From Euglena gracilis (lineage: Eukaryota), in NCBI GenBank assembly GCA_039621445.1, contig CP154954.1, forward strand, positions 41,223,572 through 41,287,571: a stretch of DNA of 64,000 nucleotides, given 5' to 3'. The translations under genes were made by a program, and so were the position numbers. This document shows, piece after piece, positions 385 through 15,950 of the stretch (within the stretch, counting starts at the first letter, position 1; every line of letters starts with the position of its first letter). The notes beneath the pieces were generated by a model. It was not told the DNA's origin and did not search any database. It was given only the letters and a program-made list of their open reading frames with translations.

Positions 385-519
385 TCAGCCGACCTTCTTC
401 TCCAGCGCCCGCATCTGCTCCTGCAGCTTCGCCACCGCGGCGTCGCAGTGGCTGCGGACCGCCTGCACCTCCGCCTTCAGGGACGTGTTCTCCTGCTCCA
501 GGCTGAAGACCTTCGCCTC
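385..519 (-). CDS. ppa: PPase exon 14 (coiled-coil tail [44 protein letters not shown])
   Basis: Intron 13 ends CAGGGCC / GGCTCTG pair in register and keep frame; heptad pattern; TGA at 387-385. Confidence 0.75.
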   Translation of the reverse strand, partial: EAKVFSLEQENTSLKAEVQAVRSHCDAAVAKLQEQMRALEKKVG

Positions 520-3500
520 CCCGGCAGAGCCGCCCCGACCACACTGCCACCCTCCCCCCGCCTGCCCGACAGACTGGTGCGTGGAACACATTGCAATGTA
601 CCAAAATGTGTCTAGGAAGCTGAGTACATTTAACCAAATTGTCAAACCGCAAATTATGCCAAGGGTGCCCCGCCCACCCCTCTCAGGGTGCTCAGAACAG
701 GGTGTTCCGCTGCGTTGCCGTCTCCTTCCAGTATTGCCAAACCCCTCGAAAAGGAGAGGGGGGCACTGGAGATGGGCTCTTCTCCCCTAGAAAGGGATAT
801 TATGTTGGAGCATGGCATGGAAAAAAAACACAGATAATGCACATTAAATGTTATCTGTGAACCTCCCAGCGGGGGTGAGGTTGGCCCTGGGTGGCCTCGT
901 CCATGCGCTGCCCGAAGAGGTAGAACAGCTCATGGCCTGCGCGGATCTTCTCGATGGCGTCCTGCCGGTCGCCCCAGCCGGTGATGCGGGAGAACGAGGC
1001 GGTGTCCTCCAGGTCCTGTTGGGACGCAAAAAAAGGTGTTAAGCGAGAGGGGGGGAGGGGGTAGTCCCGGAACCCCCCCTCCCTCCTCAGTCCCGACGCC
1101 CCAGTAGGTCCTCCTCAGTCCCGACACGACGAGGTAGTGGGAAACTGAAGCGGGGGATGGATATGGTTTACCACTTGGAGTATCTGCCTTTTCCCGCTCT
1201 TTTCACTGCTTTTGTGTGGAATGAAGAGGTGCGTGTGCCCTCGTCCACAGCGCACCCCCTTGTCCAACGATCACTGATGTTCGCCTCCGACCGGGGGGAG
1301 GGGTCGTGAGACAGGGGGGACCCAGCAGCAAAAAAAAAAAAACTGGGCAAAGATGGCGGTAGTTGGCCGCTTTAAGCTGCTCTGGTGGCCCTTTGGCAGG
1401 GATGGATGGGAAGCCTTGAGGGGGGGGGGGGGGGGTGGGACCCCCCCCCTCTCGACACGGAGGGGGGGGGCGGGGTGGGTCGGACCCCCCCCCTCCTACC
1501 TCGAAACTGAGGGGGGGCCGAAAAATTTCGATTTCATGGACGGGCAAAGGGCCGGAAATCGGGTCAAAATCGGTCAAAAATCCCTGATTTTTCTTTGAAA
1601 ATAGATCCAAAAATGCTCGTTTTTTGAAATTTGTTGAACACTTTTTTGGGGGAAAACACCAACACATCAAAAAATGGGCAATATGTCCAAAAGTCAGCAA
1701 AAAGGGGTATTTTTGCTCATTTTCTGGCGCGCAGCGCCGGAAGAAAATTTTTTTCTGCTATTTTTGGCACCTGTCAAGGAGGGGGGGGTGGGGGGGTGCG
1801 GACCCCCCCTCCCAACATCTAGGGGGGGGGGGGGTGGTCCGGACCCCCCCCTACCACCTTACCCCCCTGGGGGGGGGGGGTGGTCGGGACCCCCCCCCTA
1901 CCACCTACCTCAATACCGAAGGGCTTCCCATCCATCCCTGCCCTTTGGGGTTACTTTCGTCACTTTGGTCACTTTGGAGCACCTTTGGGGGACAGCCTTA
2001 TGGGGACAACTTTGGGTCAACCTCATTGGGGGAGAGTTTGTTTCGCGTTAAGAATTTTGGCGGCCATGTGCAAAGGCGGAAGGCCAAGTTTGCATGTAAG
2101 GAGGAGGGGGTCAAGGGGGGGGTGCACTCTTTTTAAGCCACCTTTGGCCATTTTTAGGGCGCTTTCAGTAATTTTTTAGCCAACTTTTTGCAACTCTTGG
2201 CCATGTGTCGCAACATAGCGCAATATCAAGCCGCCGTCAGAAATTTACTTCTACTTTTTAGCCATATTGAGTCCTGGCATCTTGCATTTTCATGCCATTT
2301 TTGTCCAGCTTTCTTTATTTGCAAAAAAAAGCAAATTAGTTCACAATTATTCCCTGATTTATGGAACCAACATCGCTTTCCAAAAAGATCACATCTGACC
2401 AGTCGTAGGACAGGCCTGGTTGGACAGGGGGGGGCATATAACACTTATCCCTTCGAAACCCCTGGCCTGGGTACGTTGTCTCTAAGTCAAACCTACCCCC
2501 CTACGTGCACCGCGGCTGTTTCTTGGTGCCTTTTATCCCTTCTTCTGGCCTGGAGCTGTTGTCCGCCTCTGGCCCTTTTGTCTGTGTTTTTGGAGGTGGC
2601 CGGAGCTTGGGGGTCTTTCCTTGTTTTCTTTGCCGGCCACCAAGCGCCCGCCAAGCACATACTCCACAGTTAGGGGGGGGGGTCTCCTTCACCGTGTCAA
2701 CGCACCGGTTACTCCAGTCCACGACCCCAGCAGGTGTGGTTCCCAGGTTGGTGGACAAGTCCACCAAATTGGGGACAAATTTGTGGGAGGTATCTGTTCA
2801 GGGTCCGAAGGCACCTCCTGGGGCAGCCCTGTCCCGCAAGCACACCAACTTGAAACCCACTCAGGAAACTGTCTCGCCCCTACCCCCCCCCCCGGGAAAC
2901 TGTCTCAGACAAGTCAGCGAGTACAGAGATAGGATACAGTTTTCCGTACCGGTCGATAACCTGTCCTAGAAAAGTTTGCCAACATTGTTTTCAGGATTCT
3001 GATCATGAATTTGCGGGAAAAAAAACAATTTTTTTGATTTTTGTTTCCGGTGGATGTCGAAAAATGTCAATTCTTTTCTCTGACCGGGGGGGACTTGGAA
3101 AAAAAATTATATGTACCGGCATTTTTATCCATTTTGCAAGGTCACAGAAATGTAACAAGAATTTGCTTTTTGAAAGGTTTTCTGAGGGAAAAAAAGCAAA
3201 AAGCACTTGCATTCTCATTGCACCTTCATTTCAATTTTTTATGCGGACTGAGGGAGAAAAGAAGGGGGAATCTTGTACAGAAAAAAAAATGCAGAAAACT
3301 GCAGGAAATTGCGGACTGAAAAAGTTGGTGCGGATCAAAATTTCGGCTGAAAATGAAAAGTTGCAAGAGAATTGTAGATATCAATCCCTGGAGGATGTTC
3401 AAGCTTGAGCGCTCACACAACACACACACAACACACACAACACACTGCGTGTTACACACCTTGTAGTGGAGAAAGAAGTTGTGGATCTCCTCCTTGACGT

Positions 3501-15500: not shown

Positions 15501-15950
15501 TGAAGATCAATTCCCCTCTCTGGGCTTGGCTTTTCTGTGCTCTTTCCAAATTGTAACACACCCCAAAGAAAATTGGTAAGACCCATCCCATAAATGGGGA
15601 GGGCAGACCCCGGAAAGCATGGGAAGGGAACCTACTTGGAGAAAGAGATGCCCAAAAAAGCCTCCATTCACAAGCACCACGAACCAAGAACCAAGTATGT
15701 TCCAACCACCCGGGACCCAGGGGACCACTCCATGCCACTCAACGTTGGTCCATACCCCAAAGACAACCTGCCTGCTCTCGGTGGCACGGCCGGCCCCCAT
15801 CCCGAACGGCACCTCAATGAACACGGGCACGATGTCCTCCTGCGGGTTCTGCGGCAGCGCCTCCAGCACTGCGCTGTCGATGAGCGTGTGGCGGTGGCTG
15901 GTGGACCGGTCGAAGCCCGTGTAGCTGGGGTGGTGGGAATGGGTCGGCAT
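385..15950 (-). CDS. ppa: Triple-domain soluble inorganic pyrophosphatase (family I, three tandem PPase domains + C-terminal coiled coil), 14 exons, ~657 aa
   Basis: Exons 15950-15802, 15370-15241, 14474-14376, 14163-14093, 13027-12865, 11877-11695, 11509-11324, 10124-9988, 9436-9241, 8782-8665, 6305-6209, 3646-3460, 1015-893, 519-385 total 1974 nt (658 codons) and join in frame. Three copies of IExPxG-NKY-LDR-YP-YG-DG(D/N)PxD-DExGxDxK-FFxxYK. 12 nonconventional introns with paired ends and one GT-AG intron; intron 2 boundary is ambiguous by a few nt. Confidence 0.88.
893..1015 (-). CDS. ppa: PPase exon 13 ([41 protein letters not shown])
   Basis: Polypyrimidine + CAG acceptor at 1016; YK|DLE junction and GW...A...I helix typical of PPase C-terminus. 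Confidence 0.85.
1397..1940. mobile_element. Non-autonomous TIR element (hAT-like MITE)
   Basis: TIR CAGGGATGGATGGGAAGCC / GGCTTCCCATCCATCCCTG; perfect 8-bp TSD CCCTTTGG at 1389-1396 and 1941-1948. Confidence 0.88.
3460..3646 (-). CDS. ppa: PPase exon 12 (domain 3: [30 protein letters not shown]...HNFFLHYK)
   Basis: DExGxDxK and FFxxYK motifs; followed by conventional GTGTGT donor at 3459. Confidence 0.9.
3696..4908. repeat. (GT/CA)n microsatellite, ~1.2 kb, in PPase intron 11
   Basis: Near-pure TG array with a short (GCGT)n patch. Confidence 0.98.
6209..6305 (-). CDS. ppa: PPase exon 11 (domain 3: [33 protein letters not shown])
   Basis: YPxNYGFIPxT motif; ~16-bp pairing of intron 10 ends. 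Confidence 0.88.
8665..8782 (-). CDS. ppa: PPase exon 10 (domain 3: [39 protein letters not shown])
   Basis: VNAVIExPKG, NKY, LDR motifs. Confidence 0.88.
9241..9436 (-). CDS. ppa: PPase exon 9 (domain 2 end: [32 protein letters not shown]...PRLYHL)
   Basis: HFFETYK motif; no stop before intron 9. Confidence 0.9.
9988..10124 (-). CDS. ppa: PPase exon 8 (domain 2: [46 protein letters not shown])
   Basis: DEKGxDAK motif; paired intron ends. Confidence 0.9.
11324..11509 (-). CDS. ppa: PPase exon 7 (domain 2: [19 protein letters not shown]...[12 protein letters not shown])
   Basis: Complete N-half PPase motifs. Confidence 0.92.
11695..11877 (-). CDS. ppa: PPase exon 6 (inter-domain linker [22 protein letters not shown]...YDMFP)
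   Basis: GC3-rich open frame with no ATG until its last 3 codons; both flanking introns pair in the +4/-6 register and keep frame. Confidence 0.75.
12865..13027 (-). CDS. ppa: PPase exon 5 (domain 1 end: [31 protein letters not shown]...MYLARRP)
   Basis: EIxHFFxxYK motif; followed directly by TGA, which I read as the first 3 nt of intron 5. Confidence 0.88.
13283..13929. mobile_element. Non-autonomous TIR element (hAT-like MITE)
   Basis: TIR CAGGGAATTTCT(T)AAAG / CTTTAGAAATTCCCTG; 8-bp TSD GTGCCTTG at 13275-13282 and 13930-13937. Confidence 0.85.
14093..14163 (-). CDS. ppa: PPase exon 4 (domain 1: [24 protein letters not shown])
   Basis: DxKxxAV..DP motif; next intron GCC-CAGGGC...GCCCTG-CCAGC. 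Confidence 0.88.
14376..14474 (-). CDS. ppa: PPase exon 3 (domain 1: [33 protein letters not shown])
   Basis: DVL and DEKG motifs; next intron GGC-CAGGC...GCCTG-CCCGG. Confidence 0.88.
15241..15370 (-). CDS. ppa: PPase exon 2 (domain 1: [43 protein letters not shown])
   Basis: Family I PPase motifs; GC3-rich codons. Confidence 0.9.
15802..15950 (-). CDS. ppa: PPase exon 1 (start; MPTHSHH...[12 protein letters not shown])
   Basis: ATG at 15950 in GCCATG context; IEVP motif; intron 1 ends GGGGGCCGGCCGTGC / GCACCGCCGGCCCCC pair. Confidence 0.8.

Follow-up and report, generated by a model that had tools for sequence, protein, structure and literature searches.

Prokaryote-type family I inorganic pyrophosphatases (PPases) are singly encoded subunits of about 175 amino acids (aa) which assemble into non-covalent homo-trimers or homo-hexamers. 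In trypanosomatids, the acidocalcisomal PPase VSP1 combines an EF-hand domain with one family I PPase domain of the eukaryote type. In Euglena, RbcS and LHCPII are made as polyprotein precursors which carry plastid presequences and near-identical units separated by a repeated short spacer that is cleaved. Here we examine a stretch of 64,000 nucleotides (nt) of Euglena gracilis DNA (contig CP154954.1, positions 41,223,572 to 41,287,571), referred to below as the window, and within it a gene that encodes three family I PPase domains in one chain.

The gene is expressed as one spliced messenger RNA (mRNA), capped by a spliced leader (SL) and continuous across the three PPase domains. The combined evidence makes it probable that the product is an uncleaved single-chain pseudo-trimer with specialised domains, the third of which would be a pseudo-enzyme. 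We examine the gene model, its transcript and its product in turn, then the active sites and the predicted structure, and finally relate the locus to described systems.

Gene model and domain layout

The PPase gene occupies the minus strand, where 14 exons spread over positions 385-15950 join into a single open frame, 1926 nt long and closed by one terminal stop (Table 1). The joined model predicts a protein of 641 aa, 72.3 kDa and an isoelectric point of 5.5. From the N- to the C-terminus it comprises a leader, PPase 1 (approximately aa 39-200), a 49-aa connector, PPase 2 (approximately 250-411), a second connector of about 19 aa, PPase 3 (approximately 431-590) and a heptad-repeat tail (598-641). 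The first connector corresponds to exon 6. Its first half is charged and contains two cysteines, while its conserved second half runs into domain 2.

The domains were delimited with Pfam on 12 stop-to-stop translations of open reading frames (ORFs). Matches to PF00719 are present in 10 of the 12 (E 6e-23 to 6e-3), and the exon ORFs reach up to 81.8 bits, above the gathering score of 23.5 bits. These matches form three series: profile positions 6-152 at 15378-12862 (as 6-54, 51-84, 84-111 and 109-152), positions 2-152 at 11500-9151 (2-60, 61-104 and 105-152) and positions 1-128 at 8764-3460 (1-31, 24-61 and 43-128). The order within the series indicates that three complete PPase units are encoded piecewise, one after the other. 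Among these 12 ORFs, the leader ORF and the tail ORF have no PF00719 match; the tail retrieves coiled-coil families below the cut-off and nothing else.

Twelve of the 13 introns (1-11 and 13) are nonconventional, and intron 12 (3459..1016) is the only one of the GT-AG type. When all cut positions were compared for introns 1-11, no equivalent cut yielded GT..AG. The ends of the nonconventional introns are frequently complementary C-rich and G-rich stretches, as is typical of the Euglena nonconventional intron type. The intron positions are not common to the three PPase domains. For intron 13, the boundary 893/519 (or 894/520) is the sole solution that matches the reading of the orthologs. A GT-AG alternative with its donor at 862 and its acceptor at 517, which would give a protein of 650 aa, was rejected, as the database proteins P0001, P0002 and P0003 read from exon 13 directly into the tail.

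An earlier, sequence-only reading of this DNA had proposed three family I PPase domains and a coiled-coil-like tail in one frame. The RNA junctions, the three Pfam series and the 1926-nt ORF bear this out; exon number and domain order stand as proposed, and so does the inequality of the connectors (49-aa exon 6 against about 19 aa). The proposed length of about 657 aa gives way to 641 aa because intron 13 is nonconventional and not GT-AG.

A continuous messenger RNA

Transcripts were followed in the Logan contig sets X1 and X2 and in the raw RNA-seq runs X21 and X24, aligned to positions 5050-18000. The two raw runs carry the species label Euglena gracilis. The RNA nature of the contig sets X1-X19 is a guess from the share of sampled words that they contain (0.14-0.18), which is close to the exonic fraction of the stretch.

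Each of the four runs shows all ten junctions that connect exons 1 to 11. For junctions 1 to 10 in order, the spanning reads number 36, 43, 40, 44, 31, 64, 34, 38, 130 and 114 in X21, and 9, 10, 24, 29, 16, 20, 21, 10, 11 and 16 in X24. Those which link the domains are the junction of domain 1 with connector exon 6 (12876/11840; 31 reads in X21, 16 in X24), of this exon with domain 2 (11508/11694; 64 and 20) and of domain 2 with domain 3 (9241/8782; 130 and 11). Introns 5 and 9, at which the sequence-only reading had placed the decisive test of the fusion, are thus both crossed by transcript. At junction 11, 75 reads of X21 and 23 of X24 end loosely at 6209, and their consensus continues as the window from 3646 downward. 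Of the 13 predicted junctions, RNA therefore supports ten by spanning reads and the eleventh by loose ends, while junctions 12 and 13 come from homology to the three orthologous proteins P0001-P0003.

Assembled contigs join the same parts. Record 8 of X2 (758 nt) extends from 15953 to 11694 and joins domain 1 to connector exon 6, and record 6 (659 nt) extends from 10123 to 8664 and onward and joins domain 2 to domain 3. Past 15969, a single X1 contig continues with letters that, once reverse-complemented, match the E. gracilis SL at its 3′ end, and then with Illumina adapter; the conserved 12 nt of this SL end are those quoted in a passage of PMC4778363. The mRNA, as seen in this one contig, uses the AG at 15970-15969 as its trans-splicing acceptor, which leaves 18 nt ahead of the ATG.

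A different possibility is that each domain has its own mRNA, through internal SL trans-splicing or alternative splicing, and that the continuous form is a minor by-product. SL trans-splicing is common in Euglena, where it concerns about half of the mRNAs (53.6% of components according to a passage of PMC4778363), and retention of intron 5 would provide a natural stop just after domain 1, at 12862-12864. However, the bins of intron 5 (11962-12825) have a depth of 0-1.7 against 10-20 on exons, and other intron bins, such as 10234-11097 and 14554-14985, are also near zero. The junction reads between domains in X21 (31, 64 and 130) match the numbers within domains (34-44). No site at which many molecules begin or end is listed for the reads aligned here. 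Among the best-supported loose ends, beyond which 486 others exist, none that lies at an internal exon resembles the SL; at 8664 and 15370 they represent variants of the adjoining exon. Moreover, three independent database proteins and 44 relatives are full-length fusions. We regard separate mRNAs as extremely unlikely.

The reads also reveal sequence variation within exons. The letter of the window is replaced by another in 78 of 108 reads at 6247 and in 92 of 140 at 9304. Over the sites 6247, 9304, 11435, 11480, 12970 and 14122, the share of reads with the other letter ranges from about one quarter (14122) to about three quarters (6247), and at most of these sites the other letter also occurs in contigs. 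Expression therefore extends to at least one other allele or paralog, which at several sites exceeds the window copy.

Identity and abundance of the product

When exon 9 was used as a query for longer proteins, it retrieved three proteins only: P0001 (744 aa), P0002 (617 aa) and P0003 (644 aa). Each contains three PF00719 stretches and scores above 510 bits with Pfam (P0001, 515.5 bits). P0001 is the EukProt entry EG_transcript_1590 of E. gracilis. The window model is 98.1% identical to its residues 106-744 (629 of 641 columns, 12 differences), 79% identical to P0002 and 74% identical to P0003.

P0001 begins with additional residues. The first 98 have no match in the window at E<1 by tblastn and the first 103 are without counterpart. 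Residues 1-103 are 93% identical to the start of P0013, an unrelated protein of 385 aa, and the extension may thus be a chimeric assembly or an alternative 5′ end which is not part of the locus. Further options are a shared set of 5′ exons and the splicing of an upstream gene to the SL acceptor site. The orthologs P0003, P0004, P0005 and P0006 have short leaders, as does the window model. By a crude test, the first 60 aa of the model contain no hydrophobic stretch resembling a signal peptide (maximum Kyte–Doolittle value over 15 aa, 0.72).

The protein of EG_transcript_1590 is abundant. In Table S1 of the shotgun proteomics study PMC12267456 it is represented by 33 peptides, 45.8% coverage and 420 tandem mass spectra, with an Andromeda score of 304.18 and label-free quantification values of 1.5-2.5e7 in ten of ten samples. 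This coverage exceeds what one domain could supply. Two unlabelled columns of the same row, which we take as identity and length, read about 40% and 651 aa, and the Diplonema papillatum relative P0164 is cited there as KAJ9442687.1. Pyrophosphatase is unmentioned in the main text of PMC12267456, and EG_transcript_1590 is absent from the text supplements of PMC6366073.

These comparisons bear on whether the window copy itself is active. A silent or decaying paralog could borrow its RNA and protein evidence from a sister copy behind EG_transcript_1590, and the 12 differences from P0001 over 641 columns, the majority of reads with another letter at several sites and the N-terminal extension of P0001, not found in the window, are in line with this. 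Against it, the frame of the window copy is fully open and its active-site residues are those of the orthologs. The letters of the window are present in 30 of 108 reads at 6247 and in 48 of 140 at 9304, and 537 of the 1167 aligned X21 reads are at least 99% alike. The sole SL-bearing contig fits the window's own 5′ end. A silent copy is, on this evidence, very unlikely.

Active sites and asymmetry within the family

Active sites were compared at 14 columns, which we take to correspond, in the numbering of the E. coli PPase, to E20, K29, E31, R43, Y51, Y55, D65, D67, D70, D97, D102, K104, Y141 and K142. Across these columns domain 1 of the window reads EKERYYDDDDDKYK, domain 2 reads EKERYYDDDDDKYK and domain 3 reads EKKRYYDNDDDKYK. 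Domains 1 and 2 therefore retain 14 of 14 residues and domain 3 retains 12, with the substitutions E31K and D67N. Asp67 is the proposed general base which activates the nucleophilic water. The motif DXDXXD, listed with 12 further conserved residues as the family I active site in a passage of PMC8386120, is intact in domain 1 (DGDPID) and domain 2 (DGDPLD) and broken in domain 3 (DGNPMD). The protein as a whole belongs to the PPase family because its first two domains carry the motif, which domain 3 by itself lacks. Pairwise, the three units of the window are 54.2, 43.6 and 42.9% identical.

The same asymmetry extends well beyond this locus. An exhaustive HMMER search with P0001 against 1.84 billion representatives gave 8168 matches at E<=0.001, very few of which are long proteins with several domains. 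In a word-indexed search, P0003 retrieved 47 proteins of 585-744 aa which cover at least 84% of the query; they include the Diplonema papillatum protein P0164, MMETSP and EukProt transcripts, and ORFs from contigs as long as 2 Mb. A hidden Markov model (HMM) of the domain, built from 63 single-domain matches, detects three domains in all 47 database proteins and in the window model, where domains 1, 2 and 3 score 228, 238 and 208 bits. One of these relatives, P0158 (UniRef A0A7S4U9W6), is a three-domain PPase of 648 aa, 45% identical to P0003 and labelled Guillardia theta. Either the family reaches beyond Euglenozoa or the entry is a contaminant in a cryptophyte transcriptome.

Domain 1 is the constant element: among the 48 three-domain chains, each active-site position is kept in 47-48. 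An intact domain 2 occurs in 16 of 48, and the domain is heavily degenerate across the Diplonema-like majority, with HMM scores of 54-89 in the Diplonema-like subgroup versus more than 200 in the euglenid-like one. In domain 3, Asp67 is missing in 47 of 48 chains and Glu31 in 40 of 48. The sole chain with Asp67 in this domain is P0193, which groups with bacterial tandem forms. The window protein and the three proteins closest to it carry NKYKF and DGNPMD in domain 3.

The connectors are also conserved in part. Two residues of connector 2, N421 and L428 in P0003 numbering, are nearly invariant among 45 sequences. A short (A/V)-P-R-x-L element is common to both connectors and aligns to HMM positions 5-12, which in single-domain PPases form the native N-terminal arm.

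Predicted structure and the integrity of the chain

AlphaFold2 was run on the ortholog P0003 with a 45-row alignment of three-domain proteins. The model has a mean predicted local distance difference test score (pLDDT) of 89.4 and a predicted TM-score (pTM) of 0.88, and only the first 37 residues lie below pLDDT 50. The connector blocks have pLDDT values of 67-92 and the C-terminal region forms a single helix (579-643). The high pTM over the entire three-domain chain indicates that the domains are fixed relative to each other in the model. The family I fold, an oligonucleotide/oligosaccharide-binding (OB)-like β-barrel with two C-terminal helices, is present in this model. In a Foldseek search of the PDB, each domain of P0003 matches solved PPases (TMt 0.85-0.96; 2PRD with 57% identity and TMt 0.92). 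Among the top 50 there is no match beyond one domain, and none is aligned over more than 188 columns.

The tail of the window protein comprises about six heptads in which 9 of 12 a/d positions are hydrophobic and one ‘a’ position is occupied by asparagine. Hydrophobic a/d positions with asparagine at ‘a’ are typical of parallel dimeric zippers. For a pair of P0003 fragments, each comprising domain 3 and the tail, a complex prediction scored 0.31 against a mark of 0.42, which speaks neither for nor against dimerisation.

The sequence-only reading had left room for a cleaved polyprotein, in which the 72-kDa chain would be cut at both connectors into three PPases of about 20-25 kDa that assemble as ordinary oligomers. 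The continuous ORF with its units arranged head-to-tail would suit this, Euglena does make such precursors, and the (A/V)-P-R-x-L element in both connectors could in principle be a processing site. Yet this element aligns to the native N-terminal arm and not to an added spacer, and the connectors are unequal (49 versus about 19 aa). The units are 43-54% identical, not near-identical, and the N-terminus lacks the signal-like hydrophobic stretch expected of plastid-targeted polyproteins. The connector confidence in the compact ortholog model and the two nearly invariant residues of connector 2 also speak for a chain that remains whole. Finally, a conserved dead domain 3 and a C-terminal zipper are hard to account for if the pieces separate. 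Cleavage has consequently lost ground and we consider it improbable.

Origin of the fusion

A maximum-likelihood tree of domains was computed under LG+G4 from 97 rows. Of the 48 chains with three domains, 18 contribute their 54 domains, namely the window model and 17 database proteins out of 47. Four other tandem proteins add 11 domains, and 32 single-domain proteins were taken from the set of 63. The tree is unrooted, and its branch support is the Shimodaira–Hasegawa-like approximate likelihood ratio test (SH-aLRT), with no bootstrap.

All 54 euglenozoan domains fall into one group (SH-aLRT 84). Within it, the group of first domains (94) and that of third domains (94) each span euglenid-like and Diplonema-like proteins, which indicates that the triplication is older than the split between these two subgroups and has been retained since. 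Three short rows entered as single-domain proteins nest among the euglenozoan domains; they are apparently pieces of chains with three domains. P0007, P0021 and P0193, the tandem proteins of bacterial type, are set apart in a clade of their own (SH-aLRT 100), and similar fusions were therefore made independently in bacteria. As the tree is unrooted and has no bootstrap, the order of the fusion events is a suggestion of its topology.

Proposed mechanism

We favour the following explanation. A nuclear gene of E. gracilis, or of a near-identical strain, would give rise to an SL-capped mRNA and from it to a 641-aa chain of 72 kDa. This chain would stay uncleaved and its three domains would pack like the subunits of a bacterial PPase trimer, producing a covalent hetero-‘trimer’. 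Domains 1 and 2 are predicted to hydrolyse inorganic pyrophosphate (PPi), and domain 3 would act as a structural or regulatory pseudo-enzyme. More speculatively, the leucine-zipper-like tail could pair two chains into a hexamer-like particle. Of the two fates that the sequence-only reading had offered, the pseudo-trimer with specialised subunits is the one favoured by the conserved asymmetry of domain 3, the near-invariant connector residues and the compact ortholog model.

Several observations weigh against this explanation. Continuity of the mRNA is assembled from short reads and from contigs of at most 758 nt, and no single molecule across all 13 junctions was seen. Exons 12-14 lie outside the aligned reads, with junction 13 drawn from the orthologs. 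The window copy may be a minor expressed allele or paralog. EG_transcript_1590 carries an N-terminal extension of 105 aa that is absent from the window, and the 83.62 kDa given for it in PMC12267456 is a theoretical value, not a mature size. The putative loss of activity in domain 3 is deduced from two substitutions. Lastly, the compact model is that of the ortholog, not of the window protein, and its high pTM could reflect a packing other than a trimer.

A bolder extension assigns a role to the degenerate domains, namely domain 3 in euglenids and domains 2 and 3 in diplonemids. These former active sites might now be allosteric sensors of PPi, orthophosphate (Pi) or nucleotides which steer the catalytic domain or domains via the covalent trimer interface, with the zipper bringing two chains into a ‘hexamer’. 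We put this forward as a tentative idea that is more likely wrong than right. If true, it would describe a family I PPase with built-in regulation, in which a homo-oligomer was frozen into a single chain and then subfunctionalised.

Gene features and surroundings

The coordinates of the gene and of the repeat within its intron 11 are collected in Table 1.

Table 1. Features of the three-domain PPase gene (positions in the window; PF00719 ranges are profile positions)
Feature	Position	Strand	Evidence and remarks
SL acceptor AG	15969..15970	-	mRNA body from 15968; 5′ untranslated region of 18 nt; one X1 contig
Exon 1 coding sequence, aa 1-50	15800..15950	-	ATG at 15950; 38-aa leader and start of PPase 1 (IEVPFG); junction 15800/15368
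Exon 2, aa 51-92, domain 1	15242..15368	-	PF00719 6-54, E 3.6e-14; NKYE, DRV, FYP, DYGF, DGD
Exon 3, aa 93-126, domain 1	14375..14475	-	PF00719 51-84; junctions 14475/15242 and 14162/14375
Exon 4, aa 127-150, domain 1	14092..14162	-	PF00719 84-111; RNA junctions
Exon 5, aa 151-200, C-terminal helices of domain 1	12876..13026	-	PF00719 109-152; junction 12876/11840
Exon 6, aa 201-249, connector 1	11694..11840	-	100% identity to P0001 303-352
Exon 7, aa 250-311, N-terminal half of domain 2	11323..11508	-	PF00719 2-60, E 6.1e-23; intact DGDPLD
Exon 8, aa 312-356, domain 2	9988..10123	-	PF00719 61-104; RNA junctions
Exon 9, aa 357-422, C-terminal helices of domain 2 and connector 2	9241..9436	-	PF00719 105-152
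Exon 10, aa 423-461, start of domain 3	8664..8782	-	NKYKF, Lys replaces the Glu31 equivalent; junction 8782/9241
Exon 11, aa 462-493, domain 3	6209..6304	-	PF00719 24-61; DGNPMD, DXDXXD broken, Asn at the Asp67 equivalent; junction 6304/8664
Exon 12, aa 494-556, domain 3	3460..3646	-	PF00719 43-128, E 1.9e-19; 100% identity to P0001 597-659
Exon 13, aa 557-597, C-terminal helices of domain 3	893..1015	-	Homology: tblastn with P0001 654-700
Exon 14, aa 598-641, heptad-repeat tail	385..519	-	TGA at 385-387; homology to orthologs
(TG)n/(CA)n microsatellite, about 1.2 kb	3696..4934	.	Inside intron 11; source of long false ORFs in every frame

The window is eukaryotic DNA with a GC content of 0.31-0.62 and long microsatellites. 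Five intronic or flanking stretches (5050-5913, 8074-8505, 12394-12825, 13258-14121 and 16282-16713) combine a very high summed word depth in X1 contigs, in the thousands, with a low depth in raw reads, and many of their reads fit two places. Such a profile suggests dispersed repeats whose transcripts come from other places in the genome. Further along, an element of about 6.5 kb is present twice in direct orientation, at 37706-44333 and 54887-61302, the copies being 98% identical. A Pfam comparison of 55 long ORFs located elsewhere in the window gave a single sub-threshold match, to RVT_1 (E 5e-4) in the minus-strand ORF 37340-37897 of the first copy. The duplicated element is probably a retroelement-like repeat. 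An AT-rich microsatellite block of about 3 kb with ACATAT, ACAT and ACAG units occupies 27000-29955 (GC 0.31, strong skew).

Comparison with described systems

Family I PPases are textbook examples of small identical subunits in symmetric trimers and hexamers, and here three such subunits are fused into one gene. The fusion would have been kept since the divergence of euglenids and diplonemids while its units specialised, and it thus offers a natural experiment on the path from homo-oligomers to hetero-oligomers and pseudo-enzymes. Glycolysis in these organisms depends on PPi, and this abundant protein is a concrete object for asking how Euglena controls PPi levels. To our knowledge, no described family I PPase is a single chain of three diverged units with a zipper-like tail. 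A full-text literature search found no paper on a multi-domain family I PPase architecture or on EG_transcript_1590, with bioRxiv supplements outside its coverage. What is new is the recognition of the architecture and its asymmetry. The sequences themselves are already public under a bland name, the euglenozoan three-domain entries being annotated simply as ‘inorganic pyrophosphatase’, and there is no new fold or chemistry.

Compared with the RbcS and LHCPII precursors, as these are generally described, the PPase gene likewise places several homologous units head-to-tail in one Euglena mRNA. In contrast to them, it has no signal-like N-terminus, and its units are divergent and its connectors unequal. 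VSP1 offers a looser parallel: going by its general description, it too joins a soluble euglenozoan PPase to a non-catalytic module, but with a single PPase unit of the eukaryote type.

The prokaryote-type PPases (Thermus thermophilus 2PRD, E. coli 1I40 and 2EIP, Sulfolobus 1QEZ) are comparable at the level of the domain, as each Euglena domain corresponds to a full PPase unit; the identity with 2PRD concerns domain 2 and extends over 169 columns. Unlike these enzymes, the Euglena protein has three diverged units per chain, one broken DXDXXD motif and a coiled-coil-like tail.

The bacterial-type tandem PPases P0007 (545 aa), P0193 (587 aa) and P0021 (398 aa), apparently uncharacterised, resemble the Euglena protein in having two or three PF00719-like units head-to-tail. 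They differ in that every unit of P0007 and P0193 has 14 of 14 active-site residues, and in that the tandem forms are without a zipper tail. Three intact units are present both in P0007, where they follow a signal-peptide-like N-terminus, and in P0193. In P0021 the second of two units is degenerate, and in P0011, which looks AT-rich, it is the first unit.

The closest counterparts are the other euglenozoan three-domain proteins (P0001, P0164, P0002-P0006 and P0154-P0192), which share the domain order, the helix tail, the intact domain 1 and the degenerate domain 3. P0001 differs from the window protein by its additional N-terminus of 105 aa. The Diplonema papillatum protein P0164 is 40% identical to the window protein, and in its Diplonema-like subgroup domain 2 is degenerate as well.

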